A stretch of DNA of 64,000 bases, taken from positions 21,608-85,607 of the forward strand of contig CAJWAR010000004.1 in assembly GCA_913020445.1 (NCBI GenBank), read 5' to 3'. Positions 13,886 through 49,654 of the stretch are shown piece by piece (position 1 is the stretch's first letter; every line of letters starts with the position of its first letter). A program made the translations under genes and the position numbers. Origin of the DNA: an uncultured Rhodospirillaceae bacterium. GTDB lineage: Bacteria; Pseudomonadota; Alphaproteobacteria; Rhodospirillales; UBA2165. Under the pieces are notes generated by a model that was not told where the DNA came from, made no database searches, and worked only from the letters and a program-made list of their open reading frames with translations.

Positions 13886-13893
13886 AAAGTAAA

Positions 13894-20554: not shown

Positions 20555-20597
20555 GCGCCGCACTTCGATAATTTGAATAATAAACGGACGTTGAGAT

Positions 20598-31917: not shown

Positions 31918-31940
31918 GCGGAGAAGACTGGACCAAAAAC

Positions 31941-33842: not shown

Positions 33843-33844
33843 AC

Positions 33845-34777: not shown

Positions 34778-35249
34778 ACATCATCTCCATATCGTGGGCC
34801 AGACGATTAAGCTCACGCCGCCGTTCAGCGCGGCTCATGAATTTTTGCTCAGGTAGTTCCGGCTTTTTCCGCGCCATCGGGGCGATCAGTTCCGGCGATT
34901 CCGGCTTAGCGGCGACAATTTTTTGTGTCGGTGCCGGCTTGCTCACATGTTCGCTTAATAGCGGCACTTTATTAACCGGCCGCATGGCAACATCAACGGG
35001 TTGAATTTCGGGCTTTTTTTCAGCCTGATTTTTCGGCGCTTCTTCGGCAATTTCGAATTTTTCCCAATTTGCTTTAAAGCTCTCCAGTTTCTGGCGAGCC
35101 CGTTCGGCCAGTTCACGGCCTTTGTCGGTGGCATCACCAGACGCAACAGCAGGCAGAAGATCAGCAATTGGTTTAATCGGTTGGCCGTCAACGGCGACCA
35201 AATAGAGAATGGCAATCACCGCCATGAGATTAAAAAACATAAATTTCAT
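34755..35249 (-). CDS. Bitopic membrane protein with an N-terminal TM and a Pro/Lys/Glu-rich periplasmic region
   Basis: TM FFNLMAVIAILYLVAV. Its ATG overlaps the stop of the upstream gene as ATGA. Confidence 0.6.
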   Translation of the reverse strand: MKFMFFNLMAVIAILYLVAVDGQPIKPIADLLPAVASGDATDKGRELAERARQKLESFKANWEKFEIAEEAPKNQAEKKPEIQPVDVAMRPVNKVPLLSEHVSKPAPTQKIVAAKPESPELIAPMARKKPELPEQKFMSRAERRRELNRLAHDMEMMFADKLSE

Positions 35250-35779
35250 TTGATTTCTCCTTTTATCAGCAGGGTTCCTTGGGCTTCTTGAGAGGCGTGG
35301 GAGATCGACATCAAGGCGCGCAGCAAAGCCGCCAAGGGAAGACCAACAACCGTCGTCATAAAAGCCAGGCTGAAATGTTCGGTCAGGCTTCGAATGATGG
35401 TTTGAACGGTTTCCGGCGTTAGCTCTTGACCGGCCAGCGAGCCAATGCCGAGACTGATGCCAAGCAAGGTAAAAGTCAGCGCTAAAGTCGAGACGCCGTT
35501 AGCCGCGTGTAAGCCGCTTTCCAGCCACAGCTCGGCATCTTGCAGTCGCTTCCGGCGATGGGCCTCACTAAGTCGCACCCAGCAGAAAAAAACCAGAAAC
35601 ACCAAGCTGCTGAGCATCACCAAAAAGGCACTGCCAAATACTTTGAGCGCCCAGCCGGTAATTTCACCGACGCCGAAACTGGTTGTTGCAACCAAGACAG
35701 CGACAGTAATTACCAACAGGCCCAAAATTAGACTAAGACTGCGCGAACCGGCATGGATGAAGCTAAAGATTGCCTGCAT
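35246..35779 (-). CDS. MotA/TolQ/ExbB-like proton-channel family protein (tentative)
   Basis: Four hydrophobic helices. The C-terminal part, LALTFTLLGISLGIG...AFMTTVVGLPLAALL, resembles the MotA_ExbB signature (LGLLGT ... TTxxGLxxA). Confidence 0.5.
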   Translation of the reverse strand: MQAIFSFIHAGSRSLSLILGLLVITVAVLVATTSFGVGEITGWALKVFGSAFLVMLSSLVFLVFFCWVRLSEAHRRKRLQDAELWLESGLHAANGVSTLALTFTLLGISLGIGSLAGQELTPETVQTIIRSLTEHFSLAFMTTVVGLPLAALLRALMSISHASQEAQGTLLIKGEIK

Positions 35780-35787
35780 AATTCCCT

Positions 35788-36177
35788 CTAGCGCCGCCGT
35801 AAGGATGCGGATAAAACGCTTTGCGTCGTCATGCCAAGCTGGTTTAACCAGGCATCGACAATCGAGATATTTTTCTCGGTCGCGCCATGAACCAAAAACG
35901 TCAAATCATAGTTTTCAAAGGCTTGGCGCACCGTCGGCGTGTTGCGTCCGGTTAGTTTTTTGTCGCGCAACACCATGCGCTCGAGATCAATCAGCCGCAC
36001 TTTGGCGCTGGCTATTTTCGCCTGACGATCTTTGATCGCGATCTCGGGGTTCAACATTGTATTGATGGTAAGCGCGCGTTCGCGCTCGAGATTTTCCAGA
36101 GTTCCGGCTTCGGCCAGCGCTGAAAAGCTAACAACAGCTGAAAAAACAAATGCGGTGATGATTGGTTTGGTTTTCAT
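35788..36177 (-). CDS. Exported hypothetical protein
   Basis: Signal peptide MKTKPIITAFVFSAVVSFSALA. Confidence 0.6.
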   Translation of the reverse strand: MKTKPIITAFVFSAVVSFSALAEAGTLENLERERALTINTMLNPEIAIKDRQAKIASAKVRLIDLERMVLRDKKLTGRNTPTVRQAFENYDLTFLVHGATEKNISIVDAWLNQLGMTTQSVLSASLRRR

Positions 36178-36203
36178 TTTGGTTCTCCTAAAATTACCAA
36201 AGA

Positions 36204-37106
36204 TTAGTTGGTTAAAAAGTAATCGACGGCTTTGGCCGGTGATGAGGCCGACGGTCTATCGCTATCCGCCATCTCGGCATCCAAGGCCTGTTCTGAAAGC
36301 GCCAAGGCATCGAAGGCCACCAGCTTGGCCATATAACCAAGGATGGTTTCTTCCTGCTCAAGCACCGCAAGCTCGGCCTGTGCATCGGCCAATAATTGGC
36401 GGATATAATCTTCCTTGCTGAGCGGCTGGCCATCGACTTGCACGGATGTATTCATGCGGTGGCTTTGAATGCGGCTGGCGAGCTTTTCTATCGCCGCCAA
36501 ATTTTCCGCATATTTCACCGTGTATCTACTTTCCGGCACGACCGAGACTTGGAACAGTTTCATATCAACCTTGGCCAGCGATGATTTGAACCGCTGGCGG
36601 GCACCTTCCTGGCGGTTAACCAGCTCTTGGCGCACCGGTGTCATGCCGCGGTTTTTCTCCGCCATGCGCTTAAGCATGCGCTCGAACAATCGATGCTTGG
36701 TCCTAAGGTGCTTTTTGCGGTAGCGGTTTTTTTCGGAAATCAGCTCGAGAAAATTCCGTTTTTCGCCGAGAAACTGATGACGAAGTTCGAGCTTCAATTC
36801 GCCCTCCGCCTCTTCGATGGCATCCCGCAAATCCGCCAAAGTCTGACTTTTAAGACCGGTTTTTTCTTCCGTTTTTTGAATTGCCAGGCCGAGGGTTGAT
36901 TCCTGAAAATCATGGTCCAACGACTTTTTCAAATAGGTCGCCGGCAGTTTGATCAGCTTTTCGCTCGATTTAGGGTTCCAGGCCGGGATGTTGTTAGCAT
37001 CAGCGGCGGCATGAACCGAGGATGAGCTGGCGAGCAACGCGCCTACAGCTATCACAGCCACCGAAGCCAAAAGTTGAAACCGTATAGTTTGTTTATTATA
37101 CGACAT
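36204..37106 (-). CDS. Exported, long alpha-helical (coiled-coil) hypothetical protein
   Basis: ATG 37106 follows AAGGAG. Signal peptide ...LLASSSSVHA. The mature part is rich in heptad-like charged helices. Confidence 0.6.
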   Translation of the reverse strand: MSYNKQTIRFQLLASVAVIAVGALLASSSSVHAAADANNIPAWNPKSSEKLIKLPATYLKKSLDHDFQESTLGLAIQKTEEKTGLKSQTLADLRDAIEEAEGELKLELRHQFLGEKRNFLELISEKNRYRKKHLRTKHRLFERMLKRMAEKNRGMTPVRQELVNRQEGARQRFKSSLAKVDMKLFQVSVVPESRYTVKYAENLAAIEKLASRIQSHRMNTSVQVDGQPLSKEDYIRQLLADAQAELAVLEQEETILGYMAKLVAFDALALSEQALDAEMADSDRPSASSPAKAVDYFLTN

Positions 37107-37120
37107 CTCAGTTTTCTCCT

Positions 37121-37675
37121 TTAATTGTGTTTCCAATAGCGCACCCGACGAAGCTCGGATTTCACCCGGCTGCTGACATTGGCAGCCGACAGCTCGCCGA
37201 TGGCGGAGCGATCCCGAAGGCCTAAGAAAACTTCCATCGTGTCGGTAAAGGACGAACCGTCGGGGAAATAGAGATCTTGTCCGGGAAAGGCTTTTTTCAT
37301 TTTGCTGAGATTGACGCGGGCTTTGGCGATATCACCGCCTTTGAAATAATTTTGCACGCTAAGAGCGACCGCACGAACGCGCTCCTCCTCGCCGACTTTG
37401 GCCGCTTCCGGCCCAAGCTCCGCCTCACATTTATCCAATAACCTGGCGCTGGCGATATAGCGGGCAGCGGAAGATTCCGTTTTGGCTTTACGGTCCATTT
37501 CCAGCGCATCATCCCGGCACGAGCGATATTCCCGCATGGCTGAGATTTCGGCAAAGCGCGCCTCCCGGTAGCCAATACCCTCACGCGCAGTTTCGGTGGT
37601 GTAAAGATTACAGGCGCCCAGCGTAGCCGTGGCAGCCATTACGAAGGGTAGGCGTAAATTACGAAGATTGAACAT
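37121..37675 (-). CDS. Putative helical lipoprotein; first gene of cluster operon A
   Basis: ATG 37675 follows GGAGGA. Lipobox TLGAC. Confidence 0.65.
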   Translation of the reverse strand: MFNLRNLRLPFVMAATATLGACNLYTTETAREGIGYREARFAEISAMREYRSCRDDALEMDRKAKTESSAARYIASARLLDKCEAELGPEAAKVGEEERVRAVALSVQNYFKGGDIAKARVNLSKMKKAFPGQDLYFPDGSSFTDTMEVFLGLRDRSAIGELSAANVSSRVKSELRRVRYWKHN

Positions 37676-37715
37676 CAGCGTTCCTCCAGTTTGCAAAGTT
37701 AATTACTTAGCTTTG

Positions 37716-37742
37716 CTATGGCGGGGCCAGAGGCGGTTTTTT
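37716..37742 (-). promoter_or_regulatory. Cluster motif copy 1, promoter-like, upstream of operon A
   Basis: Coding-strand sequence AAAAAACCGCCTCTGGCCCCGCCATAG ends 40 nt before ATG 37675. It contains TGGCCC-N5-TAGCA, which has sigma-54 -24/-12 spacing. Confidence 0.55.
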
Positions 37743-37761
37743 TGAAAAAACGGGAAAAAAT

Positions 37762-37858
37762 AAAAAAAAAGCAGGCGGCCAACGATTTTTAAGAGGCCAG
37801 CACGCCTGCAAGTTGGGTACAGGTGGTACAAGGGAGGCACCTGGGAGGATTTTTATCA
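37762..37858 (-). ncRNA. Candidate small RNA with two CCUCCC (anti-Shine-Dalgarno-like) motifs
   Basis: It lies between motif copy 2 (37867-37892) and a terminator. The terminator is the hairpin GCAGGCG..GGCC / GGCC.GCCTGC at 37771-37809 followed by U9 at 37762-37770. An upstream hairpin CAGGUG-CCUCCCUUGUAC-CACCUG (37820-37843) shows CCUCCC in its loop. A second CCUCCC lies at its 5' base. No ORF is present. The 5' end is a guess. Confidence 0.45.
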
Positions 37859-37866
37859 CTCCCTGT

Positions 37867-37892
37867 CTATGGCGGGACCAGAGGGGGTTTTT
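37867..37892 (-). promoter_or_regulatory. Cluster motif copy 2, upstream of the sRNA candidate
   Basis: Coding-strand sequence AAAAACCCCCTCTGGTCCCGCCATAG. Confidence 0.5.
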
Positions 37893-38063
37893 ATGACGTA
37901 CTGGAAAAAAATGCCGTCAGGCGCGGGCCCATCCTAATTTTCTGGCCGCGTATCCATCTTCAAGAAGTTTATTCACCACAGAGTTCACAGAAAACACAGA
38001 GGATTTGGGAACGCCCCGACTCGTCACCGTAATTCGATTAAATGATCAGCGAGGCATAACCAT

Positions 38064-38759
38064 TTAGTTAATTTTCGCGTGCAACGGATCGGTAAATGCA
38101 TGTCCCCTGGCTCGGTAGGCTCTGATCGCTTGAGCAATTTCAGCGGAGCGGTGTTTCAAACCTGTCCGGATCCAGGGATATCCGGAAAGATCAACCAATT
38201 TGGTCATCGTCGCCCCTTTAAATTCGTTAGGGAAATTAGAGACGATCGTACTGGACATCAGGATCGCAGCAACTCTCCCGTGTTTAAGCATTCTGACTTG
38301 GCTATCAAATTTGGGAACATTCAAAATATTTTTTCTGCCCCGCACCAATTTCATCTGCCAACGGGCTCCCTCATTTATGGCAATTGACTTGCCGGCAAGG
38401 CTCTGCAGTGAGGTAACTTTCGGGTCAAAAGAAATTAACAATCCAGATCCATTGGTCAGCGGCTCTTCTATCATATGCAAATAATCTCCGGCAAACTTCT
38501 GATAAGCTCTGGCTCGGAGTATCAGGCCATCTAATTTACCACTTTTGATATCACGGGTCGCCCGCTTAAAGGGCGCATTGACTATTTCAATGCAAATACC
38601 CGCCTCTTTCAATGCTTGGACAAAATTACGTTTAATGTTTTGAAATACTGCTGTGGACTGATTTAAATCAGGATATTTGAGACATTGACCAGCTTGAATC
38701 GATGTAGTTGGAATGAGGAAATAACAAAGAAAAAAAATCAAGATGATGGCAAAACGCAT
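38064..38759 (-). CDS. Periplasmic solute-binding-protein-like protein (SBP family 3 type), orphan
   Basis: Signal peptide ...TTSIQA. Pattern FKRATRDIKSGKLDGLILRA fits family-3 SBP lobes. No permease or ATPase gene is adjacent. Confidence 0.5.
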   Translation of the reverse strand: MRFAIILIFFLCYFLIPTTSIQAGQCLKYPDLNQSTAVFQNIKRNFVQALKEAGICIEIVNAPFKRATRDIKSGKLDGLILRARAYQKFAGDYLHMIEEPLTNGSGLLISFDPKVTSLQSLAGKSIAINEGARWQMKLVRGRKNILNVPKFDSQVRMLKHGRVAAILMSSTIVSNFPNEFKGATMTKLVDLSGYPWIRTGLKHRSAEIAQAIRAYRARGHAFTDPLHAKIN

Positions 38760-38972
38760 AATTTTTTACTTACCCAATAGATATTAACCAATCTCCAATA
38801 TGGGGATTAATTGAAGCGATTCAAGAAAATGGTGTGCTCGGATTAATGCCGCGGAAATACAACATGTTGCACTTCGCTCGTGAGTCCACAGAGGCAAGTC
38901 AAGTCCGGGGTGACGAGTTTTCCTGTTGAAGTAGGTTCATTATATATGACGACAGAAGTAAATGTGTCCTAG

Positions 38973-40505
38973 CTACTCAATCACCGTAACCACAAGCGAC
39001 GCTTCCGAGATCGCCGCGTAAGGTAATTTGCGGAATAAAGCCGACAGATTATCAACGCGGGTTCGGCTCATTGGCTTTAACGATCTGCCCCGCAAATCCC
39101 GTGGCAAATCCTCAGTAACATCACGACTGGCGCCGAAACATTTGACTAATTCCCGACCCACTGGCGCGGTTACTTTGAGATCAAACGGAAATAATTTTTT
39201 ACCGGGTATCGAGTGGATTTTGCCACCCGCTAACCGGGGCGATTTAAACTCGCGCCAAAAATGCGGGTTAGGGAATATTTGGATCACCTTGCCATCGGCT
39301 TGATGGTAAAAGCAGTAGGTCCAGGCATCTTCACCAAGGCGCAACAACAGAGTCATTTCATCGCCGATTTGATAGACCGGATTTCTGCCTCTGGTACTGG
39401 TTAAATTAAATTCAAACGGCCCCAAGCCATCATTTTCGCGTAAATGCTCAAAATCGCCAGCCGGTTTGATCCGAATGCCTTTGACTGCACTAATCGGCAT
39501 GCGACCGGACCAGGAAAGTGTATAGCCGGCGGGATTTTTGAGGGTCAGCTTTAACTCGATAACCCGGTTGAGCACCCAATATCGGCCGGTCAGCAAATAC
39601 GAAGATTGAATTTTAGAAAATTTGTTCTCCTTTAGCGGCATGCCATCAAGCTCCCGCATCAAACGAGACTCTTTGATTTTTAAACTACGCCCGGTGAGCA
39701 CGTTCGAATACGCCGCCTGCAGCGCCGTGACAAACCGGTCTTTAAAAAAAGCCGCAAAGGGTGGCTGCAACCCAGTTTCCTGATAATGCAAACCGCCGAC
39801 CCGTACTTCCGAAATATCGCGTAAATTATCGGCAAAAAAGTTGGAGGCCTGCGACACCGCCTGGTCGACGGTCAATAAATCATTGAGGGTGGATTTATCC
39901 TGCGCCTTAAGCGGCAATATCACCCGCGCGGTTTGGGCGAGTATGGTGCCATCCATGCGCGCCACCTTATAGCCCAATGAAAGCCCGCCTTCGACCAAAC
40001 GCATGCGGCCTTGAATAAGAGCGTCAACATTACGCGCTTTGGCCATCAAGGCGGCGATCGGATCATCGTCCTCATCCAACGCACCGGTTGCCGACATATC
40101 GGCGATAATGGCTTTCAAAGCATCGCGGGCGACAATCTCGATATTACCTTCTTGGGTTTTGAGCAATGCCGCCAGCAAGCGGTCATTAAATCCGTCGGCA
40201 ATGCTTTTGGCGATGGGAATTTTGTCTTTATGAAACGGCCAAACGGCAAACCGCAATTTTTTCCCGCCGATATAGGCGTAGTCTTTTTTGAGATAGGCTT
40301 TTTCACTTGAAGAATTCATCACAGGTGACTGGTTTCTTGACGTCGAATGGATGCCGGACATAATTTCCTTGGCGAATTCTTCAAAGACATTTCCGGATGG
40401 CTCGGCGACCGGCGATTGGGCTTGGGCTTGGGTTGGGACCGCGGCATTGGCAACAACCAAACCAGCAACAATTAATGCGGAACATATGCCAGAAACGTGT
40501 TTCAT
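38973..40505 (-). CDS. Exported protein with an LpoB/CsgG/FlgO-like N-terminal region and a DUF4384-like C-terminal domain
   Basis: ATG 40505 overlaps the upstream stop as ATGA. Signal peptide ...VPTQAQA. C-terminal YQIGDEMTLLLRLGEDAWTYCFYHQADGKVIQIFPN recalls DUF4384. Confidence 0.6.
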   Translation of the reverse strand: MKHVSGICSALIVAGLVVANAAVPTQAQAQSPVAEPSGNVFEEFAKEIMSGIHSTSRNQSPVMNSSSEKAYLKKDYAYIGGKKLRFAVWPFHKDKIPIAKSIADGFNDRLLAALLKTQEGNIEIVARDALKAIIADMSATGALDEDDDPIAALMAKARNVDALIQGRMRLVEGGLSLGYKVARMDGTILAQTARVILPLKAQDKSTLNDLLTVDQAVSQASNFFADNLRDISEVRVGGLHYQETGLQPPFAAFFKDRFVTALQAAYSNVLTGRSLKIKESRLMRELDGMPLKENKFSKIQSSYLLTGRYWVLNRVIELKLTLKNPAGYTLSWSGRMPISAVKGIRIKPAGDFEHLRENDGLGPFEFNLTSTRGRNPVYQIGDEMTLLLRLGEDAWTYCFYHQADGKVIQIFPNPHFWREFKSPRLAGGKIHSIPGKKLFPFDLKVTAPVGRELVKCFGASRDVTEDLPRDLRGRSLKPMSRTRVDNLSALFRKLPYAAISEASLVVTVIE

Positions 40506-41788
40506 GGTGTGATCTTGTGTCTCCACGTCAAAACCGAAAATCCTTTCTGAGCTAACGTTTTGACCGCCTGATTCCAGTCGCTTTGCCTTTTGAGCCATTG
40601 CATTTCGGCGGCGACGGGTTCCTTGCCGATAATCGCATTGAGGCGGTATTGCAGCGGTTCCGCCAACCTGCGCGGTACATCAATCGTCCACGACTGCTTG
40701 CCCTTAGTCTTAGTAATGCCGGAAAGCAGCTTTGGTTTAACATTGCCGCGGACAAAGGCCCCGCTTTCAATATCGAGATTGGCGGCAATAAACTTGGATT
40801 TTGCCCCGAGATCAAAGTCAAATTTCAGACCACACAGATTTTTCAAGGTACTGACGGCAATATCACCATTGGAACTTTGGATCGGCTGAGTTTCAGCTTC
40901 AATGCGGCCAAAATGCACTTTCGCGCAGGTGCCCCCTGCCGGTGGCCGGCGTTCCGACACGGTAATTGTCTCGGCTTTACGTGGTTGAACCACTTTTTTT
41001 TCAGCCAATTTCTTAGGCTTTGGCGGTGGCGGTAATTTCTCGGCAGACTTTTGCACCGCTTTTTCCGCAGCAGGCTTAACCGCCTCTTGATTGACCCCGC
41101 TCATATAGGCCCACAGGATGAGAACAGAGATCAGCAAAGTGCCGATTATCGATGCCACCGCGCTGCTGGTACCGGTCTGGCTTTTTGCCGAGCCGGCAAT
41201 TGGCTGAGCATCTGTCGGCCCCAAACCCAACTGAGCAATGAGTTCGGCAGTACTCGAAAGACCTACAAGCTCAACACCTTCAGGCAATTCAGCTTGGTCA
41301 ATTTCAACTAGATTTTCAGCCTGTGGTACAAGGGCTAATACCGGCACGCCGGCGTCATGCCAATTATCAAAAAAAGTCTTCGATGCCGCTACTTTTTCAG
41401 CGATATGGCCAACCGAGACGACGCCTAAATCATAATCAACTTCACCGGTGAGCCAAATTACTTGATCGGGTGAAGCGTCTTTATCGGCAAGCTCGGCACT
41501 TTCGCTCGCGACGACCGCATGGGCGGCAAAGACCCCCAATTGCCAGCTTTTGCCGACGCCGATGCTTTCGGTAACATCCATGCGGAAAGAGGCATAATCG
41601 AAAGGGCCAAATTCCCGCTCAATTACCCCGCTGCCGCGTTTGACGAAATCGTCATAATCACCGCTGATGGGCAAAATATCCGAGCCACGCTTGAGGCAAA
41701 CCATAGAATGCGGCGCATATTCGGGCGTCAGGCGGTCGATTTGAGCCGGACCGCCTGTTGTCGCTACAAATATTGCTAGTCTTTTCAC
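40502..41788 (-). CDS. Membrane protein with a cytoplasmic Lon-protease-like (S16, Ser-Lys dyad) domain, one TM, a Pro/Lys linker and a periplasmic domain
   Basis: GTG start overlapping the upstream stop as GTGA. The N-terminal domain runs parallel to the Lon proteolytic domain: GKSWQLG (cf. GPSAG), LTGEVDYDLGVVSVGHIAEKVAAS (cf. MTGEI..G.V.PIGG.KEK..AA), VLALVPQAEN. TM IIGTLLISVLILWAYM. Confidence 0.5.
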   Translation of the reverse strand: MKRLAIFVATTGGPAQIDRLTPEYAPHSMVCLKRGSDILPISGDYDDFVKRGSGVIEREFGPFDYASFRMDVTESIGVGKSWQLGVFAAHAVVASESAELADKDASPDQVIWLTGEVDYDLGVVSVGHIAEKVAASKTFFDNWHDAGVPVLALVPQAENLVEIDQAELPEGVELVGLSSTAELIAQLGLGPTDAQPIAGSAKSQTGTSSAVASIIGTLLISVLILWAYMSGVNQEAVKPAAEKAVQKSAEKLPPPPKPKKLAEKKVVQPRKAETITVSERRPPAGGTCAKVHFGRIEAETQPIQSSNGDIAVSTLKNLCGLKFDFDLGAKSKFIAANLDIESGAFVRGNVKPKLLSGITKTKGKQSWTIDVPRRLAEPLQYRLNAIIGKEPVAAEMQWLKRQSDWNQAVKTLAQKGFSVLTWRHKITP

Positions 41789-42330
41789 CGAATAAAGGCT
41801 TCCGTTTTTGGATCACTTAACAGACGTACCAAATCTGCATCCCGGTCGGCAATGATTTGCGCCACACCGTCACGGATTTTAGGCAGCGGGAAACGGCTGC
41901 AATTGGCTTCAACATCACACACCACCAACGTCGTTGGCGTGACCTTCTCGTTGCCCGAAAGCTCGACAATCACATATACCTGGTTTGGCTCAGCCCGGGA
42001 TGGCTCCATTCGAATACGGCAGCCTTTGCCTTCGCGGGACAAAATATCGTCGGACTTTTTCGCTGAACTGGCCGCCATCGCTTCCGGTACATAATAGACC
42101 GCATTTTTCTCCAGCATGTCGCGATAGATCCGGCGCAAAGCCAAGTTTTCGCCCAAGGCTTTCTCAACAGTTTCGTTTTCCGCACCATTGGCATAAGCAA
42201 ACAAGGCCGACGGCGAAACAGATGATAGTTTTTCACTTGAGCTCAATAATTCATCGATCTGCGACAATTCAGAAAATTTTTGTTTTGCCGCTTGAAGTTT
42301 TTCATCACCTGGAATTTTATAATCACTCAT
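41785..42330 (-). CDS. Cytoplasmic hypothetical protein (181 aa)
   Basis: ATGA overlap with the upstream gene. No signal peptide and no recognisable motif. Confidence 0.55.
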   Translation of the reverse strand: MSDYKIPGDEKLQAAKQKFSELSQIDELLSSSEKLSSVSPSALFAYANGAENETVEKALGENLALRRIYRDMLEKNAVYYVPEAMAASSAKKSDDILSREGKGCRIRMEPSRAEPNQVYVIVELSGNEKVTPTTLVVCDVEANCSRFPLPKIRDGVAQIIADRDADLVRLLSDPKTEAFIR

Positions 42331-43970
42331 TGGACGTCTCCATAGAGCAGATTAAACTGATTGCTAAAGACCTGTTTGTCTTGATCAAACTTGCTGTTGA
42401 GGTCTTCACCGTCTTTATCCAGCGCCGCCATGCGCGTCAAAAATGTTTCGAGTTGGCCCGATATACTCAGCAGCGCCCCGGCACCCATCCGGAACCCCTC
42501 AATGCCGTCGGGATCTTCAAGCATATCTTCATTAAACCCTTTCCGGGTAAGTTTGCTAAAAGCGTCTACGGCATCTGCCATGAAATCGGAACTCATCTCG
42601 ATGTCGTCCAGATTGTCATTATGGCGGGCTGCTTCAAAAACGCTATCTGGATTTTGCGCGCCAAAGGCGACAATATTATCACCCAAATCAGCCGCATCCT
42701 GTCCGGCGAGAACAAAGTATGTCGCCTTTTGCAATTGACGGACATGGGCCAGGATCGTTTGAAACTGCTCGCGTTTATCATCGTAAGCCATCGCATCACG
42801 GCAATCGAGGCGTTGGCGAACCGAAGTTTCGCCGCGCTTGACCTGCAAATCAGTTGTTATCGCAGTTTGGATCGAGCCAAAGACCTCCAATTGCATGAAG
42901 GAGCGCGGCAAACGGCCGGCATAGGGCCCGTATTGCATCAACGCTTCGATGGGTTTGCGCTCACCTTCTTTTTTAAAGAATTTAATTTGATTAGCGGGCT
43001 CTGCATCGAGAATATTCAACGGTGATTGCCAATCGCCTAAACCATCCAGGCCGTCACTTTGATCGTCGGGCTCAATTTCCTGAGCCTCAAAATCAGTGCC
43101 GATTATGGCGGCATTTTCAATGGTGTCCTGCTGGTCAGCTTCTTCCAGGGCGCGCATGAAGTTAACAAAGCCATCGAACACGGTCTTATAGGCGCGAAAT
43201 TCGCCAACCGTGGAAAACTCCAGCCAGAAATCCAAAACTGCCGGATCATCAATACAAATTTGCCCATCTCTTTCTCCGGCATTTTCCCGAGCTTTGAGAA
43301 AACCGAAAATCCGGTCAAATTTTTCGTCATGCTGAGCCCGGGTTAAATGTTCCCGGCGGTATTTTCTGAGCCGTGCCGATATTCTGTTACTGGCGGTTTT
43401 GATCGCTTCAAGATCAATTGACGCTTGCGACAAGTCATCGAAAATCTCATTAAGTTCGGTATAGAAGTCATAGTTATCCAAACCGGTGAGAAATTCATAA
43501 AGCGCCGCCAAAAACGGCATGCGGCCAAAGCGCACTTCAAAGCCATCATCGTCATAGTAAACGCCAATGCCATTTTCGGTGCGCTCGAAACCCGGTTTCA
43601 GCCAGTCACCAAACTCAAGCTTTTCATCAAGGGCGGCGCGATAGACCGCCGGCAGTGCTTTTTCAACACCGAGAAAAAATAAAGCGCGTTCGTCACTGCC
43701 GCCCTCGCTCAACGCATCAATGGCGCTGACCAGATGGCAAAGCTCAAAAATCGGGGCATCTTTGTGTGGCCCGCCGGCGGAACCGACAATGAACTTGGCC
43801 AGCCACACCATCACCGGGGCGTGGCTGTATTTAGTGCTGCCGTCAGATGCCGTCGCTTCGCCAATTGCCTTAAAATCGGCCAATAAGGGGCCGGAAGCCC
43901 CTGACCGGGTAATTGTCGAAACTGCATCATCCATCTGGTCATTACTCGTAATAATAGTCTGGGTTTCCAT
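42327..43970 (-). CDS. Cytoplasmic acidic hypothetical protein (about 547 aa)
   Basis: Long ORF with no TM, no Walker A and no motif I recognise. ATG 43970 (METQT) follows AGGA; TTG 43997 is an alternative start. Confidence 0.6.
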   Translation of the reverse strand: METQTIITSNDQMDDAVSTITRSGASGPLLADFKAIGEATASDGSTKYSHAPVMVWLAKFIVGSAGGPHKDAPIFELCHLVSAIDALSEGGSDERALFFLGVEKALPAVYRAALDEKLEFGDWLKPGFERTENGIGVYYDDDGFEVRFGRMPFLAALYEFLTGLDNYDFYTELNEIFDDLSQASIDLEAIKTASNRISARLRKYRREHLTRAQHDEKFDRIFGFLKARENAGERDGQICIDDPAVLDFWLEFSTVGEFRAYKTVFDGFVNFMRALEEADQQDTIENAAIIGTDFEAQEIEPDDQSDGLDGLGDWQSPLNILDAEPANQIKFFKKEGERKPIEALMQYGPYAGRLPRSFMQLEVFGSIQTAITTDLQVKRGETSVRQRLDCRDAMAYDDKREQFQTILAHVRQLQKATYFVLAGQDAADLGDNIVAFGAQNPDSVFEAARHNDNLDDIEMSSDFMADAVDAFSKLTRKGFNEDMLEDPDGIEGFRMGAGALLSISGQLETFLTRMAALDKDGEDLNSKFDQDKQVFSNQFNLLYGDVQ

Positions 43971-44018
43971 TTTTCGTTTTATCCTGTTTAAGTTCAACCC
44001 TAAATGTCGTTCTGATGC

Positions 44019-45020
44019 TTAACCGTTGCGCCAATAATTGCGGCGTCGGGGAGAGGATGAAAAGTCGTCAAGCGTGTGAGCGGCTCTAAGACGGCGGTCT
44101 TCCAGCGTTGAATTGCTATTCGCATAACGGTCATATCGCCAAGGGCGATAAGAACGATCCCGCCGATATCTCCGACCTCTGTTATTTCTTCCAGAAATCC
44201 ATGAGGTCCGAATGCGAGTATTAGATCCTGCGTAACGGAGATCGAAACGACCATTAAAGTAAGAACTAAACTGATCATACTCCCGCCAGGCTGCTTTCTG
44301 TCCGGATTTGCGGCAAGGTCTGTCGAAATCATTCCAAGCGTAATCACGGCCTCTATTGCGCCCAAAACGATTCCAGCGCCGGTTCTGATTCAGGGGGACC
44401 CAGCGGTCATTGTCGCGATTATCCTTTTCGTCATCCCAGCGAACTCGTGGCTGATCGTTGCTGCGCTTTTTCCAGCGCTGCTCCCATTTGTCGCCTTTAT
44501 CGTCGTCATTAAAGGCGATGGCCCAAACTTTGTTCTGTTCGGCATAGCGCTGCTGCCAGCGTTGCACCAGGCGCACATAGGATTTGGTAAATTCATGGGG
44601 TTCGGCGTTGCTGCCCTTACCCTTCAAGGTGCCGCCATTGTAATGCGAAAGTGCCAGCTCCCAATTGCCACCATATTGGCGGCGCAGTTTGGCCAGATAG
44701 TCGATGCCAAGCTGAATGTTAAGCCGGGCCTGCCAAAGCTCGTCTTTATCAACACCGAATTCATCCTTGGCGGTTTTCGGCATTAACTGCATGACACCAC
44801 GCGCCCCTGCCGTGCTCAGCGCGGTTGGATTAAAATCCGATTCGACTTTAGCCACAGCCAGCGCCAAAGCCGGCGGCACCGAAGAGTTTTGTGCTTCTTC
44901 GACAACTATTTTTTTTATTTCAGCGCGCGACACAGCGAGCGCCGGATTGATAATGGCAATAATCGCAATTGCGGCGATAAGGCCAGCAAGACTAAGTCTC
45001 AGAAAGTTTTGCAATGTCAT
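44019..45020 (-). CDS. SLT-family lytic transglycosylase with a long Arg/Trp/Asp/Asn-rich C-terminal tail
   Basis: Signal/anchor LSLAGLIAAIAIIAIINPALA. SLT core ALALAVAKVESDFNP...GARGVMQLMP...YNGG. The tail of roughly 180-190 aa is low-complexity (RWKKRSNDQPRVRWDDEKDNRDNDRW...RRYRRDRSYRPWRYDRY). Confidence 0.8.
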   Translation of the reverse strand: MTLQNFLRLSLAGLIAAIAIIAIINPALAVSRAEIKKIVVEEAQNSSVPPALALAVAKVESDFNPTALSTAGARGVMQLMPKTAKDEFGVDKDELWQARLNIQLGIDYLAKLRRQYGGNWELALSHYNGGTLKGKGSNAEPHEFTKSYVRLVQRWQQRYAEQNKVWAIAFNDDDKGDKWEQRWKKRSNDQPRVRWDDEKDNRDNDRWVPLNQNRRWNRFGRNRGRDYAWNDFDRPCRKSGQKAAWREYDQFSSYFNGRFDLRYAGSNTRIRTSWISGRNNRGRRYRRDRSYRPWRYDRYANSNSTLEDRRLRAAHTLDDFSSSPRRRNYWRNG

Positions 45021-45466
45021 TTTATTTTCTCCTTTAATGTCATTAGCCAGGCGTCGTTCAGGGTTGTGACAATCAAATTTGCATTGCCGAACCGGTCCCG
45101 AACCGAGATTGCCTGCCGCAAAGGTAATTCCGGCGCGACGGCCAGAAATTGAATTTTCTCGGATTGAAGTTGATGTGACGCCAAGGGGTTGAGGCCGGCA
45201 TCATAGAGTTGGCCTTTGTAAAAAACTGCCATTTTCTCCGGTTGGATGGCCGTTACACTGCCGCTCTTCCCATCTTGTGATTTCGTCGAACTGGCTCGCT
45301 TGATTGAAACGCCCGAAATATCGAGCAACACGTCTGCAGTCTTTTTGATCTTCCCAACCGTTCCGGTGCTCATCGACACCATGGTCAACACCATCAAGCT
45401 GAAAAACGCCATTGATAGCGCCAGAGCAATTTCAACCAGGGCATTATTTTCTGAACCAGAAGGCAT
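45017..45466 (-). CDS. MotB/ExbD/TolR-like single-TM protein (tentative); first gene of cluster operon B
   Basis: I prefer ATG 45466 (MPSGSENN); the track ORF start at 45610 would bury motif copy 3. The TM NALVEIALALSMAFFSLMVL has an acidic residue near its cytoplasmic end, as in stator/ExbD proteins. A periplasmic domain of about 100 aa follows. Confidence 0.45.
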   Translation of the reverse strand: MPSGSENNALVEIALALSMAFFSLMVLTMVSMSTGTVGKIKKTADVLLDISGVSIKRASSTKSQDGKSGSVTAIQPEKMAVFYKGQLYDAGLNPLASHQLQSEKIQFLAVAPELPLRQAISVRDRFGNANLIVTTLNDAWLMTLKEKIK

Positions 45467-45507
45467 GTCGCTATTTTCCCACTCGCGATGATTAACTGAT
45501 GCCTTAT

Positions 45508-45533
45508 CTATGCGGGGCCCAGAGCAGGTTTTT
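45508..45533 (-). promoter_or_regulatory. Cluster motif copy 3, upstream of operon B
   Basis: Coding-strand sequence AAAAACCTGCTCTGGGCCCCGCATAG ends 41 nt before ATG 45466. Confidence 0.5.
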
Positions 45534-45586
45534 CGCCGGCGGCGAAGAAAAATTGCATTTTTATAAAATTTTTTTTGAGTGCGGAG

Positions 45587-45612
45587 AAAAAACGCCTCTC
45601 GCCACGCCATAG
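45587..45612 (+). promoter_or_regulatory. Cluster motif copy 5, upstream of the S1 protease gene and divergent from copy 3
   Basis: AAAAAACGCCTCTCGCCACGCCATAG ends 54 nt before ATG 45667. Confidence 0.5.
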
Positions 45613-45666
45613 CTCCTCACAAGCGCCTTTCGAGGGGTGCACAACAATCTTATGTGAGGTACAGAA

Positions 45667-46506
45667 ATGACTAATTTTAAAAAGGTGGCTGCGGCCACAC
45701 TAACGGGCGCCGTTGTTTTAATGAGTGGTACTGGGGTAAAGGCAGGAGGGTCTGGAACAGGATTTTTTGTTAACCCCAACGGATACATCGTCACCAACAA
45801 CCACGTCGCCATCGGAACTCTGCGATTTAAAGATGGTACGCAAATTCCATTTCCCTGCCGATCTATCACAGCCAAAATCGGACACACTACTTACCGGGCA
45901 AAACTGTTAGCAAGAGACAAACAAAACGATTTGGCACTTCTGAAAATTGATCTAGGAGAACAAAAACAACGGCACTTTGTTGCTTTGAAGTCAAATCAAT
46001 CGGTCAACGGCTGGACGAACCTTGGTGGCGTTTTAGGTCTACAAACCGGGATTAGCAATGGCCACAATAGAATATCCAATTCATCTTTCAGCTATGTTCG
46101 ATTAGCGAAGAATCAGGTCACCCACGGTGACATTGTTCATGTATTCGGCTACCCACTCGGAAATTTCATTTCTTCCCAAATGAAAATTGCGACGGGAGCG
46201 GTAAATGCAACCATGGGATTTGACGATAACTCCAGTAGATTTCAACATGACGCTGCCGCCTATCCCGGGAACAGCGGCAGCCCCGTAATGGATAAGGCCG
46301 GTAATCTCGTTGGTGTTCATGTCTCGGGAGCTGGAATTAACACCAGGCTTAAATTTGCCATTAAAGGAAATGTCTTGAAGGAATTCCTGAAGCTTAATGA
46401 TGTGCCGTTTGACGAAGTTCAAAATGACACACCGGTTTCCGCTCAGGAATTATACCGACAAGCCAAACACTATATCACCTACATGAATTGTTACGACTAC
46501 CATTAA
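45667..46506 (+). CDS. Secreted trypsin-like (S1) serine protease
   Basis: Signal peptide ...GTGVKA. Triad contexts TNNHV, NDLALLKI and GNSGSPV. Confidence 0.8.
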   Translation: MTNFKKVAAATLTGAVVLMSGTGVKAGGSGTGFFVNPNGYIVTNNHVAIGTLRFKDGTQIPFPCRSITAKIGHTTYRAKLLARDKQNDLALLKIDLGEQKQRHFVALKSNQSVNGWTNLGGVLGLQTGISNGHNRISNSSFSYVRLAKNQVTHGDIVHVFGYPLGNFISSQMKIATGAVNATMGFDDNSSRFQHDAAAYPGNSGSPVMDKAGNLVGVHVSGAGINTRLKFAIKGNVLKEFLKLNDVPFDEVQNDTPVSAQELYRQAKHYITYMNCYDYH

Positions 46507-46531
46507 CGTCTTCAACCCCTCCTTTTCCTAG

Positions 46532-46565
46532 CCCCGCCCACTTCAACGAGTGCGGCGGGGTTTTT
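46532..46565 (+). terminator. Rho-independent terminator after the protease gene
   Basis: CCCCGCCCAC / GTGCGGCGGGG stem followed by TTTTT. Confidence 0.7.
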
Positions 46566-46645
46566 CTGTGCCGTTTTTTCACCACTTTTTTGGGCTAAAT
46601 TTGGCAAAAATGTGCATAACAGGTAATATTTTTCAAGTTCTTCAG

Positions 46646-46671
46646 AAAAACGGCCTCTGGGCCCGGCATAT
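46646..46671 (+). promoter_or_regulatory. Cluster motif copy 4, upstream of 46723-47613
   Basis: AAAAACGGCCTCTGGGCCCGGCATAT ends 51 nt before ATG 46723. Confidence 0.5.
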
Positions 46672-46722
46672 CGAGGTTAGGTAATCGATCTTTATTGTTT
46701 TAAAAGTTAGGGAGTAACCTCG

Positions 46723-47613
46723 ATGAAACGCATTTTTACTATTTTAATCGCTGCCTTGACCATCACGTCCGGCACCATCTTTAACAACCCGGCACTTGCC
46801 GCAGAACAACCTAATATTATGATTATGGGCGAAGATGGCGACCGGGATTCGGTGCCGCGCAACAGCCGCGTTTTTAAACGCGTTTTGAATGCACTCGCTA
46901 ATCAACTGCATGATGAAGGCTTTGACGTCTTTGATGAAACGGCGCTGACATTGGATAATTATGTGCAAGGCCGGATCCGGCGCTCTGATGACGAAATTAT
47001 CGATATTGCCCGCTCTGTTGACCGGCCGCCGATCGATGTCGCTGTCATTTTCGGCATTTATGCCAGTTCCAATCGCACCAGCTACACCACCAAAATCCGC
47101 ACCCGCATCGAAGGCCGTATGTTGAACGTTCGATCCGGCCAGCGGCTCGGCAATTTTGAAGTGGATATCCCCCGCGCCTTCAATGCGCCGCACGATTGCA
47201 ACCGGGAATGTTTGCTTGAAACAGTGGGCCGCAAGGCACGCAGTCTGTCCCAAGACCTTGGCGCCGTGCTGACTGAAAAATTAGCGTATATGGTTGATCG
47301 TGGCCGCCGCTTCGCGTCTGAAAATCGCAACAGTTATCTACCTACAGCCTACCGCCTCGCCTTTAGTGGCTTCAATGAAGACGATATTGACGGCATTGAA
47401 GAGTATATCGTCGCCTTCAAAGGCTATATCCATCATCGCCCAACCAATACATCTAAACGTCATGCCGATTATTGGTATGAAACCGATAGCGGCAGCGCCC
47501 GGCTCAATCGTAATTTGCGCCGCATGCTCGATCATTTAGGCGTGCGCGGCAGAGTGTCCTTTGCCGGCAATACATTCAATGTCGACAAAATCACCTTTAG
47601 AAGCCGCCGGTAA
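46723..47613 (+). CDS. Exported hypothetical protein
   Basis: AGGGAG RBS. Signal peptide ...NNPALA. The two-domain look is reminiscent of LpoB/FlgT-type periplasmic proteins, which is only an impression. Confidence 0.6.
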   Translation: MKRIFTILIAALTITSGTIFNNPALAAEQPNIMIMGEDGDRDSVPRNSRVFKRVLNALANQLHDEGFDVFDETALTLDNYVQGRIRRSDDEIIDIARSVDRPPIDVAVIFGIYASSNRTSYTTKIRTRIEGRMLNVRSGQRLGNFEVDIPRAFNAPHDCNRECLLETVGRKARSLSQDLGAVLTEKLAYMVDRGRRFASENRNSYLPTAYRLAFSGFNEDDIDGIEEYIVAFKGYIHHRPTNTSKRHADYWYETDSGSARLNRNLRRMLDHLGVRGRVSFAGNTFNVDKITFRSRR

Positions 47614-47635: not shown

Positions 47636-47667
47636 AAGGCGGTGCCGTTTTTAGCATCGCCTTTTTT
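47636..47667. terminator. Bidirectional terminator between convergent genes
   Basis: 10-bp stem AAGGCGGTGC/GCATCGCCTT (one G-U pair) with an 8-nt loop and a T-run. An A-run lies on the other side. Confidence 0.7.
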
Positions 47668-48901
47668 ATAGTCGCAAGACGTCGCCTTCTTTAGGCGCGA
47701 AGCAATTAGTTGAAGACTTTCGTTTTTTCAACTCCGCCTGAGCCAGTTTGAATTTTTTATCGATAGCTTTGTCGTCTTGGTCGGGATCATGATGAAAGAG
47801 ATATAAATTTTTTACCTCTGCCCGATCAGCCAGATCAACAACTTGGCTAACACAGGAATGCCCCCACCCCACTTTGGTCTCATATTCATCATTCATGTAG
47901 GTACAATCTGTGATCAATGTTTCAGTACCACGAACAAAATCCGCAAGCTTTTCAACATAGCTTGGATTGTGAGAGGGATCGCTTTCTAGGAAAAGTTCAT
48001 TATCGGTGATATAGCAGATCGAGCGTCCATGATATTCGATCCGGTAGCCGAGACAATATCCCGGATGGCTCAACAGCATGGTTTTAACGACAATGTCGCC
48101 GAATTCGATGGTCTCCTCGCGTAGGTCACGGAAATATACCCGCGAGGCAAATTCTTTAAGGGTGATCGGAAAATAAACGCCATCCATTTGAGCTGAGATC
48201 AATTCCCGCATACTGCGATCGGCATTGGCGGCGCCCAGGATTTCGAACTCGTTGCCCTGTATATAGAGCGGCACAAAAAACGGCAGCGCGTTGATATGAT
48301 CCCAATGCGGATGCGAAATAAAAATCTTGGCTTCAATATTAGCCCGGCTACTGGCAAGCAAGTGGTTGGAAAGTTCTTTGATACCCGACCCGGCATCAAA
48401 AATGAAAAAGTCGCCGCGGACAAATTCCATGGAAACACATGACGTGTTGCCACCGTACCTCAAGGAGCGTTCTCCCGCTACCGGCAGCGTGCCGCGAACA
48501 CCCCAAAAAGCCAGCGTAATATTATCTTCGAGTATCTCCGACAGTGCCAGAATAAAAGATTTAGCATCGATGGGTTTATTGATGAACCCATCCGCACCCA
48601 ATTCAAACGCCCGTTTTCTATCAAATTCATAGGTCTTGGCTGAAACGATTACGATTTTCAGAGCCGGAATATTCTTATTGGTTTTAATCTCATGACACAG
48701 TTCCAGGCCATCTTTGCCAGGCATCATAATATCGATTAAAACACAGTCGGGTTTTTCGTCCTCGATTCGGGACATCGCTGCATCACTCGACGTTTCACTA
48801 ATTACGTCATAGTTAGCTGCCGCTAAAATCGACGAGGCCAGTTTTACAAACCCGGCATCATCATCGACAACAAATATTTTTGCATTTTTTGTCATAGGCA
48901 A
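47666..48901 (-). CDS. Response regulator receiver fused to a metallo-beta-lactamase-fold hydrolase
   Basis: REC (FVVDDD, DCVLIDIMMPGKDG, SAKT...KP) followed by an MBL fold with SHPHWDH. Confidence 0.8.
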   Translation of the reverse strand: MPMTKNAKIFVVDDDAGFVKLASSILAAANYDVISETSSDAAMSRIEDEKPDCVLIDIMMPGKDGLELCHEIKTNKNIPALKIVIVSAKTYEFDRKRAFELGADGFINKPIDAKSFILALSEILEDNITLAFWGVRGTLPVAGERSLRYGGNTSCVSMEFVRGDFFIFDAGSGIKELSNHLLASSRANIEAKIFISHPHWDHINALPFFVPLYIQGNEFEILGAANADRSMRELISAQMDGVYFPITLKEFASRVYFRDLREETIEFGDIVVKTMLLSHPGYCLGYRIEYHGRSICYITDNELFLESDPSHNPSYVEKLADFVRGTETLITDCTYMNDEYETKVGWGHSCVSQVVDLADRAEVKNLYLFHHDPDQDDKAIDKKFKLAQAELKKRKSSTNCFAPKEGDVLRL

Positions 48902-48927
48902 CCCGTTGAGATGTCTTTGATTTTTAT

Positions 48928-49272
48928 CTAGGCTTTAGCCAAGCTTCGACAAGCAGCAATCAATTCTTCCAAATTTTTTTTATCTTCTGCAGAAGGAGCA
49001 GTTTCTGCATTTACCATAGCATCACAATTAACCTCGATTTCCGATCCTTTTTCCCCCATTTCGGTGAACCCAAATGTGCCGGCCGTGCCGGCCAGTTTGT
49101 GAGCATGAAAAGCAAGTTGCTCAAGACCGTCCTTGGAAGTCGCGAAGTCACTGCCCTGATTTATATCTTTAAACGCGCTCTCCAAGCTTTCGAAGCGGTC
49201 ATCCAATTGGGCGATATAGGACTGCTTCAATGCAGCAAGTTTTGCCTCCAGCTCAGCGGCCTTATCCATCAT
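48928..49272 (-). CDS. Hpt (histidine phosphotransfer) domain protein
   Basis: HAHKLAGTAGTFGF phosphorylatable-His motif. Start MMDKAAEL at 49272. Confidence 0.8.
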   Translation of the reverse strand: MMDKAAELEAKLAALKQSYIAQLDDRFESLESAFKDINQGSDFATSKDGLEQLAFHAHKLAGTAGTFGFTEMGEKGSEIEVNCDAMVNAETAPSAEDKKNLEELIAACRSLAKA

Positions 49273-49654
49273 GATGATCGTTCCAAACTTGGCGAATTTG
49301 GTCTGACAGAACCATGGGATCAAAGGGCTGCGCTATTATGCCAGCAGCCCCTAAGGAAATATACTGCTCACGATCACTTTCCATAACTTTGGCTGTCATA
49401 AAAATAATCGGGACATTTTCGTAGCCATCTAATTTGCGCACCTCCTGATAGGTCGTTGGTCCGTCCATCCCCGGCATCATCACATCTAGCAGAATCAGAT
49501 CGGGTGCAAAATCCGGCAAGGTTTCCAATGCTTCCTGTCCGGAACTGCACATCTGCACTTCGAACCGGCCAACCGTCTCCAAGGCCACTTTCGCCACCGC
49601 CTGTATGTCGGCCTCATCCTCAACACATAAAATTTTCTTTAATTCGATCGTCAT
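49262..49654 (-). CDS. CheY-like single-domain response regulator
   Basis: ILCVEDEADI, DLILLDVMMPGMDG and FMTAK motifs. Confidence 0.85.
   Translation of the reverse strand: MTIELKKILCVEDEADIQAVAKVALETVGRFEVQMCSSGQEALETLPDFAPDLILLDVMMPGMDGPTTYQEVRKLDGYENVPIIFMTAKVMESDREQYISLGAAGIIAQPFDPMVLSDQIRQVWNDHHDG

Follow-up and report, generated by a model that had tools for sequence, protein, structure and literature searches.

In a 64,000-nt stretch of DNA from an uncultured Rhodospirillaceae bacterium (contig CAJWAR010000004.1 of assembly GCA_913020445.1, positions 21,608 to 85,607; hereafter the window), an oriented sequence element of ~27 bp occurs six times, in each case upstream of a gene, an operon or a candidate small RNA. 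We consider it probable that this element is a self-contained, directional promoter that is read with a dedicated factor and that sets up a regulon centred on one gene cluster and extended to genes of the recombination and competence type. RNA polymerase would read the promoter, which would span about -33 to -7, only together with a dedicated specificity factor, and six units of the window would be fired in this way: two operons, a small RNA, a protease gene, the gene for a 296-residue protein and dprA, which encodes DNA-processing protein A. In sister genomes the same promoter would drive recA, ssb, comM and radC. Under whatever physiological signal the factor may answer to, the regulon would couple an envelope apparatus, probably with a TolQ/ExbB-type motor, to single-stranded-DNA processing and recombination, independently of LexA.

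Copies of the element in the window

A degenerate pattern of the element (AAAAMNNNCTCTNGNCNCNNCATAK, with up to 2 mismatches) has seven matches in the window, against 0.05 expected from shuffled sequences, and the position matrix built for the motif carries ~29 bits. Six of the seven matches are intergenic and aimed at the unit that follows:

37715-37742, minus strand: copy 1, AAAAACCGCCTCTGGCCCCGCCATAGC, 45.7 bits, the top site of the window; 40 nt from its end to the ATG at 37675; putative promoter of operon 2
37866-37892, minus strand: copy 2, AAAAACCCCCTCTGGTCCCGCCATAGA, 42.5 bits; putative promoter of a small RNA
45507-45533, minus strand: copy 3, AAAAACCTGCTCTGGGCCCCGCATAGA, 30.7 bits; 41 nt to the ATG at 45466; putative promoter of operon 1
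45587-45613, plus strand: copy 4, AAAAAACGCCTCTCGCCACGCCATAGC, 33.6 bits; 54 nt to the ATG at 45667; putative promoter of the divergent protease gene
46646-46672, plus strand: copy 5, AAAAACGGCCTCTGGGCCCGGCATATC, 35.8 bits; 51 nt to the ATG at 46723; putative promoter of the 296-residue protein gene
12674-12700, plus strand: copy 6, TAAAACCGCCTCTGTCCCCGCCATATC, 37.6 bits; 43 nt before the dprA ATG at 12743; putative promoter of dprA

A preliminary description of the window had listed copies 1 to 5, and when the sequence was read back all of them were found where, and on the strands on which, it had placed them. Its four distances to start codons and its count of 7 invariant positions among the 13 that follow CTCT in these five copies were likewise correct, as was its view that every copy points to a downstream unit. 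Two of its statements need correcting: the motif had been thought absent from the rest of the 64 kb, where copy 6 in fact stands before dprA, and the back-to-back pair separated by 53 bp is formed by copies 3 and 4 (45508-45533 on the minus and 45587-45612 on the plus strand) rather than by copies 3 and 5. The ATG reached from copy 1 has a GGAGGA ribosome-binding site, and no open reading frame (ORF) lies downstream of copy 2. The seventh match (20595-20621; 2 mismatches, 21 bits) falls, on the opposite strand, within the first codons of rpmG, the gene for ribosomal protein L33, and as a chance hit it serves as a negative control for the scans.

Conservation of the element across genomes

A collection of 185,579 species genomes was scanned with the pattern AAAACNNNCTCTGGNCCCNNCATA. 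Of the 33 hits obtained, 28 fall in 10 marine metagenome-assembled genomes (MAGs) classified as Rhodospirillaceae, Rhodospirillales or Alphaproteobacteria, with 2-5 strict hits in each; the remaining five are isolated, come from unrelated phyla and are chance matches, at least one of them (L020; loci from other genomes carry L numbers) lying in a ruvB-type coding sequence. A scan of metagenomes recovered the same classes of loci and genes. In 776 kb of fetched loci, no site of 17 bits or more falls outside the expected upstream positions, and every true site is intergenic and oriented to the next gene.

Orthologues of the cluster were fetched by protein homology and identity, without use of the motif. 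The loci share a conserved set of 13-14 genes in two operons, with the motif at three spots: before the first gene of operon 1, before the gene for a ~190-residue protein that opens operon 2, and before a divergent neighbour that encodes either a glycine-zipper protein or a trypsin-like protease. This three-spot pattern is seen in nearly all loci and holds in Magnetospira sp. QH-2, Terasakiella sp. SH-1, Magnetovibrio and two marine lineages; the operon 1 position is occupied in L075, L076, L078, L079, L081, L085 and L086, and the operon 2 position is kept in all cluster orthologues. The TolQ-like protein family of the cluster reaches as far as a Magnetococcales MAG and a MAG labelled Hyphomicrobiales, both with the same gene order, and in the motif variants found there the A-run and the CCATA/CCATG stretch (CCATAGC or CCATGAC) are kept and the central block is changed. 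In the main set and in three further loci the central block reads as follows:

main set: CTCTGG
L086: CCCTGG
L085: CCCCAC
L080: CATCC

Because the motif or a variant of it stands at the same cluster positions in every lineage examined, the cluster is, as far as these sequences can tell, the ancestral core of the regulon, which agrees with the central idea of the preliminary description. Its wording of a private regulon captures this tight tie and at the same time goes too far, as the motif is also present at dprA, 25 kb away.

Sister genomes have the motif in front of recA, ssb, dprA, comM and radC, as well as in front of an IS200/RAYT-like gene, a nucleoside deoxyribosyltransferase gene and, among envelope genes, those for Sel1-type lipoproteins, other lipoproteins and a glycine-zipper outer-membrane protein. 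Orthologues of dprA carry it in L002, L003, L037, L055, L062 and L065. Outside the marine clade, no motif was found at dprA in L082, L083 and L084 (Magnetovibrio, Magnetospirillum and another Rhodospirillales genome), and the recombination genes were therefore evidently recruited in the marine clade to which the window belongs. Uptake genes (comEA, comEC, comF, type IV pilus or pseudopilus) are absent from the motif-driven genes sampled, whole genomes lying outside that sample.

At recA, in at least seven species (L011, L018, L019, L028, L008, L017 and L024), the motif is located ~220 nt upstream, and two canonical alphaproteobacterial LexA boxes, GAAC-N7-GAAC followed by GAAC-N7-GTAC (GAACGTATTTAGAAC and AGAACAAAATGAGTAC), lie downstream of it and nearer the gene. 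Since the LexA boxes are separate from it, the motif is not an SOS box but a second, independent input to recA. The two boxes flank a promoter of the CTTGC(G/C) type, and transcripts from the motif promoter would have to read through the LexA sites. A LexA box, in the form of the direct repeat GTTC-N7-GTTC or GAAC-N7-GAAC, is absent from the motif itself.

The distribution of the element also bears on the idea that it is a repeat without a role in transcription initiation, either of the REP (repetitive extragenic palindrome) or MITE (miniature inverted-repeat transposable element) type or akin to an uptake signal. Such an origin might be thought of for a short, GC-rich sequence found in several copies within a few kilobases. 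However, the element has no hairpin potential, its strict matches per MAG are few, its true copies are without exception intergenic and co-oriented with the downstream gene, it occupies orthologous positions across orders despite diverged flanks, and in different species it recurs at members of the same families (recA, dprA, comM and others). Scatter regardless of gene orientation was not seen, and the motif is a directional upstream element, as the preliminary description had held; we give a repeat of this sort practically no credence.

Architecture of the element and the factor that may read it

The consensus of the sites is aAAAAC-CGC-CTCTGG-Y-CCC-GC-CATA-R-C. In two gene families its distance to the start codon is the same: the ATG of comM (L027 and L033, with the full-length N-terminus confirmed by Pfam) and the ATG of the IS200/RAYT-like gene (L026 and L063, with the N-terminus of L026 full-length by Pfam) each lie exactly 6 nt past CATARC, and no Shine-Dalgarno sequence is present at any of these four ATGs. 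The simplest reading is that both mRNAs are leaderless, with the A of the ATG as +1, and CATARC would therefore occupy positions -12 to -7, CTCTGG positions -24 to -19 and AAAAAC positions -33 to -28. Together with the terminator-bounded candidate RNA behind copy 2, the constant 6-nt spacing gives indirect support to a promoter function. A 17-codon ORF (MSNCNGANPCPSIKITP) is found at the same 6-nt distance in L013, L045, L061 and L071.

With CATARC so placed, the conserved bases fall into three blocks that share one face of the helix: A-33 to A-29, with A-32, A-31 and A-30 invariant; C-24 to G-19 and then CCC at -17 to -15, with C-22 and T-21 invariant; and C-13 to A-9, with C-12, A-11 and T-10 invariant. 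At -12, where a T would be expected, 22 of 22 cluster sites have C, and the motif contains no recognisable -35 hexamer. The housekeeping -10 element read by Caulobacter sigma-73 is G-14 C-13 T-12 A-11 N A-9 W-8 C-7 (PMC12340889). With GCCATARC at -14 to -7, the motif matches this GCTANAWC element at G-14, C-13, A-11, A-9 and C-7, that is, at 5-6 of the 7 specified positions when the inferred register is used, but it differs from an alphaproteobacterial housekeeping promoter in its invariant C at -12 and in having the A-run and CTCTGG where a TTGACG -35 would stand.

Two kinds of factor could produce this arrangement. An alternative sigma factor reading the A-run and CCATA is favoured because only these two parts survive in the distant variants and because C-12 is invariant, whereas an activator that would bind -34 to -15, in the -35/spacer region, and adapt the housekeeping sigma factor in the style of PafBC or DriD is favoured because the central block is invariant and the -10 housekeeping-like. 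In the loci examined, the motif precedes no sigma-factor or helix-turn-helix gene, and the neighbours of the cluster vary by lineage, with Crp-like genes in L079, a response regulator-metallo-beta-lactamase fusion in the window and caspase-like genes in several loci.

Promoters of extracytoplasmic function (ECF) sigma factors resemble the element in that its A-run ends in AAC at most sites, in the envelope- and lipoprotein-rich regulon and in the short, highly specific sequence. They differ in the -10, which here is CCATA and not CGTC or CGTT, in the distance from AAC to CATA (15 bp versus ~16-17) and in the spacer, which here holds the invariant C-22 and T-21. No ECF gene was seen next to any site in the loci examined, and the motif matches none of the Sinorhizobium meliloti ECF15, ECF26 and ECF29 motifs quoted in PMC6180224.

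The main rival explanation takes the core as the operator of a dimeric repressor or other regulator that would sit on the dyad CTNTGGC-N3-GCCANAG, over the -10 of an ordinary promoter, and act by derepression. The partial dyad pointed out in the preliminary description is real in the consensus, where CTCTGGC-CCC-GCCATAG pairs at 6 of 7 dyad positions, and its overlap with the inferred -10 is a typical position for a repressor, but the symmetry is not kept in diverged sites: CTCTCACCCCTCCATAGC and CCCCACCCCCTTCCATAGC retain the right half-site and lose the left. Conservation is asymmetric, in that the bases which the dyad pairs with the invariant C-22/T-21 and C-12/A-11/T-10 vary; the dyad does not take in the invariant A-run; and a symmetric site would need neither strict orientation to the gene nor a fixed distance to a leaderless ATG. 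As for the ordinary promoter, copy 5 has a weak candidate right upstream, a sigma-70-like TTGGCA-17-TAATAT at 46601-46629 on the plus strand, 17 nt from the copy, whereas a search for sigma-70-like promoters near the other five of the six copies (1, 2, 3, 4 and 6) found none. Taking both sides together, we regard a dimeric operator as unlikely.

A sigma-54 promoter of the -24/-12 type, which would need an enhancer-binding protein, had been proposed from copy 1, where TGGCCC-N5-TAGCA places GG and GC 12 bp apart. Over the full set of sites this proposal fails. The GC position has G in 18 and C in 23 of 34 sites, and the dinucleotide, present in only about half of the sites, is not conserved; GG is replaced at functional positions (for example by CTCTCA, CTCTAG and CCCCAC) and is missing from the Magnetococcales variant; a start ~12 nt past the GC would fall inside the comM and RAYT-like coding sequences; and the invariant AAA, CT and CAT are not bases of the sigma-54 consensus. 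A promoter of this class is scarcely credible here.

The preliminary description had further stated that the window shows no gene for an enhancer-binding protein or an ECF sigma factor. None of the ECF kind was seen, but the statement needs the qualifier that a sigma-factor gene of another kind is present:

29891-30775, minus strand: rpoH (sigma-32), TIGR02392 equivalog, score 354.8 against a cutoff of 323.1

This gene lies 2.4 kb beyond the end of the cluster and adjoins a gene for an rluD-type pseudouridine synthase (30940-31968) and a JAB-domain gene (32276-32713). Apart from its nearness, the idea that the element is a promoter of the heat-shock sigma factor RpoH draws on the -10 block CGCCATAG, which resembles the -10 of E. 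coli sigma-32, CCCCATNT, including the C at -12. Yet CTTG stands upstream of no site and the -10 is CCATARC, whereas the alphaproteobacterial RpoH1/RpoH2 consensus is CTTGAA or CTTGCC, N15-16, and CCTATAT or CCTATCT (PMC4843759). The ~15 gene families of the regulon include no chaperone or protease genes of the heat-shock kind, and in Magnetospirillum WYHS-4 (L083) only the rluD-type, rpoH and JAB-domain trio recurs, beside dprA-topA, the other cluster loci being differently flanked. A role for RpoH seems to us very unlikely, and the rpoH gene of the window is probably unrelated to the motif.

Three other identities were tried and rejected. An intrinsic terminator on the opposite strand (CTATGGCGGGGCCAGAGGCGGTTTTTT) would need complementary arms, which the two arms are not. 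For a sigma-28 promoter (TAAA-N15-GCCGATAA), the likeness of AAAA-N15-GCCATA is superficial: the Magnetococcales variant is ~3 nt out of register, and a CGA core is lacking. For a promoter of a single-subunit, phage-type RNA polymerase, no polymerase of this kind was seen, and a hexamer at -12 to -7 agrees better with the constant 6-nt distance to leaderless ATGs.

Several points weigh against reading the element as a promoter with its own factor. The leaderless starts are drawn from two independent gene families and one doubtful 17-codon ORF. A conserved block at -24 to -19 is unexpected in a plain two-block sigma promoter, and the imperfect dyad of the consensus would suit a repressor operator that overlaps the -10. 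If the sigma-70-like match near copy 5 is real, the gene behind it has two promoters or the motif there lies downstream of the start site. Finally, the recombination part of the regulon is lineage-specific, with dprA as its only representative in the window.

The downstream genes and the possible role of the regulon

The units that follow the six copies, together with two individual genes, are as follows:

38064-45466, minus strand: operon 1, seven genes (ORFs; order kept in relatives)
42327-43997, minus strand: gene for a 556-residue acidic cytoplasmic protein, in operon 1
33168-37675, minus strand: operon 2, seven genes (ORFs)
37762-37859, minus strand: candidate small RNA of ~98 nt, CCUCCCUUGUACC core, GC-rich hairpin and U9 at its end
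45667-46506, plus strand: gene for a secreted trypsin-like serine protease (Pfam Trypsin_2, 2.8e-25)
46723-47613, plus strand: gene for a 296-residue secreted protein, downstream of copy 5
12743-13885, plus strand: dprA (Pfam DNA_processg_A 6e-71, DprA_N, DprA_WH)
13777-16590, plus strand: topA, directly after dprA

Operon 1 encodes, in order, a 149-residue bitopic protein, an SLT lytic transglycosylase, the 556-residue protein, a 181-residue protein, a 428-residue bitopic protein, a 541-residue DUF4384 protein and a 231-residue secreted protein; SLT and DUF4384 are the only Pfam domains found in its products. The AlphaFold model of the cytoplasmic 556-residue protein is confident (pLDDT 82.7) and all-helical, and a Foldseek search with it against the PDB gave no fold match. 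Its family comprises 106 homologues, all labelled hypothetical and all of the Rhodospirillales type, among them proteins of the cultured Magnetospira sp. QH-2 and Terasakiella sp. SH-1.

Operon 2 encodes a 184-residue lipoprotein, a 310-residue secreted coiled-coil protein, a 129-residue secreted protein, a 177-residue TolQ/ExbB/MotA-like membrane protein, a 164-residue bitopic protein, a 310-residue proline-rich bitopic protein and a 224-residue lipoprotein. The 177-residue protein has a weak match to Pfam MotA_ExbB (E = 0.047), and its model (pLDDT 82) finds as top PDB folds almost exclusively TolQ, MotA, PomA, ExbB or ZorA, at weak scores (E ~0.3, TM ~0.4). Its gene is followed by those for two bitopic proteins, one small and one proline-rich, for lipoproteins and, at some loci, for an OmpA-like protein; together with the TolQ-type matches this suggests, as a lead rather than a result, a Tol/Ton-like apparatus that would be driven by the proton-motive force. 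Beyond SLT, DUF4384, Trypsin_2 and the weak MotA_ExbB match, searches of the cluster proteins with Pfam, NCBIfam and PADLOC returned nothing, including no assignment to a defence system, and profile searches with four of the cluster protein families against PDB sequences gave no match.

Copy 2 would serve a small RNA, a candidate member of the regulon with a putative 5' end and a predicted fold of -33.7 kcal/mol (z = -4.6). A counterpart with its own motif promoter, a terminator and the shared core CCUCCCUGUACC occupies the same place in L081 (15031-15105, plus strand), where two motifs stand in tandem and the first precedes a short, terminator-ended RNA. Rfam has no family for it, whether the whole window is searched at gathering thresholds or positions 37700-37900 at permissive ones. 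As judged from its sequence, a CCUCCC stretch in the RNA could pair with ribosome-binding sites as an anti-Shine-Dalgarno seed.

The protease gene is followed by a terminator-like hairpin, CCCCGCC...GGCGGGG with a T-run, read from the sequence at ~46522-46555, and its orthologue in L081 also carries the motif, as does, at the equivalent position, the gene for the 296-residue protein in that locus. The 296-residue protein appears to be the counterpart of the protein that the opening gene of operon 1 encodes in Magnetospira, Terasakiella and Magnetovibrio, an assignment made by eye and by position from the N-terminal signature AAEQPNIMIMGEDG as compared with SRILVLGQD, SRVLYMGVDEG and KPRVLLIGEDG. 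In the flanks of L075, L078, L079, L080 and L086, caspase-like Peptidase_C14 genes (some with an SH3 domain) recur beside the cluster, as do genes for outer-membrane lipoproteins of the glycine-zipper or Rick_17kDa type; the equivalents of these neighbours in the window are the trypsin-like protease and the 296-residue secreted protein.

At the dprA end, the topA ORF as listed has its GTG start (13777) inside the last part of dprA. As alignments to the family set in only near residue 42, topA probably starts in reality just past the dprA stop, and the motif promoter may thus serve both genes in one transcript. Within the genome collection, the window is closest to a Tara Oceans MAG of an uncultured marine Rhodospirillaceae bacterium, whose TopA is 92.6% identical; in L002 (2400-3520), from the closest MAG, the tblastn match to the DprA protein of the window falls into two pieces, a hint that this MAG has a frameshift there or was misassembled. 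The gene content of the window (pyrC, plsY, dprA, topA, rnr, prc, purA and rpoH) is chromosomal and alphaproteobacterial, and no tRNAs were found in it. At 47666-49654, on the minus strand, a response regulator fused to a metallo-beta-lactamase-fold domain (411 residues) precedes an ORF judged Hpt-like from inspection and from synteny with L081 rather than from a family search, and then a CheY-like receiver; farther out are genes for a cyclic-nucleotide (cNMP)-binding protein (50001-50519) and an OmpR-type regulator (50723-51430), and the same neighbourhood is found in L081.

In competence regulons such as those of CRP-S/Sxy in Gammaproteobacteria and of the ComX cin-box in streptococci, dprA, comM, radC, ssb and recA are classic DNA-processing members, and a dedicated promoter element places them under joint control with envelope machinery. 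The motif-driven dprA, comM, radC, ssb and recA match this gene content, whereas the sequence and architecture of the element differ and the envelope cluster is unrelated to known uptake machines.

The RecA-NDp promoter of mycobacteria has roughly the form TGTCGGTG-N8-TANNNT. It belongs to a LexA-independent regulon that includes recA and depends on sigma adaptation by the WYL activator PafBC (PMC11804915, PMC6789036). The two systems share recA in a LexA-independent regulon, a motif that abuts the -10 and replaces a recognisable -35, strict orientation and fixed spacing. They differ in that the sequences are unrelated, that RecA-NDp has a canonical TANNNT -10 and the present element an invariant C at -12, that no WYL protein has been identified here, and that the present regulon is centred on an envelope cluster and not on repair genes. 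WYL activators also govern SOS-independent DNA-damage regulons in the alphaproteobacterium Caulobacter (DriD) and in the gammaproteobacterial Moraxellaceae (DdaA) (PMC12340889, PMC12392091). There too an activator site lies over the -35 at a fixed distance from a weak -10, and DNA-metabolism genes are controlled beside or instead of LexA. The DriD and DdaA sites are, however, the palindromes ATACGAC-N7-GTCGTAT and CGWCA-N5-TGWCG, and the motif matches neither and forms no clean palindrome; a DriD/DdaA box (CGAC-N7-GTCG or CGWCA-N5-TGWCG) was accordingly rejected, no site containing such a palindrome.

A literature search with the sequence itself and for a matching alphaproteobacterial regulon found no earlier description. 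The promoter and its regulon belong to a type that is known in general terms, while the sequence and presumably the factor are new and the set of member genes is unusual. A bolder version, which we rate as possible but doubtful, is that a previously unrecognised regulon, under a new sigma factor or a new sigma-adapting activator, is built around a new envelope-spanning apparatus powered by the proton-motive force, is wired in marine Rhodospirillaceae to dprA, recA, ssb, comM and radC and has its own small RNA. The parts of such an apparatus would be the TolQ/ExbB-like motor, the proline-rich protein in a TonB/TolA-like role, the SLT transglycosylase, the lipoproteins and the 556-residue protein of novel fold. 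If this is true, the system could take up or exchange DNA in a new way, or it could answer DNA stress independently of LexA by remodelling the envelope.

For the abundant and mostly uncultured marine Rhodospirillales, the motif provides a ~29-bit handle on the regulon, and this handle applies equally to Terasakiella sp. SH-1 and Magnetospira sp. QH-2, which are in culture and completely sequenced. The motif ties ~14 conserved genes of unknown function to genes of the recombination and competence type, which opens the function of the cluster to experiment, and it poses the question of which factor reads a promoter in which an A-run is combined with CTCTGG and CCATA. In these bacteria recA has a control input besides LexA, and little has been charted of natural competence or of LexA-independent DNA-stress regulons in the Alphaproteobacteria as a whole.

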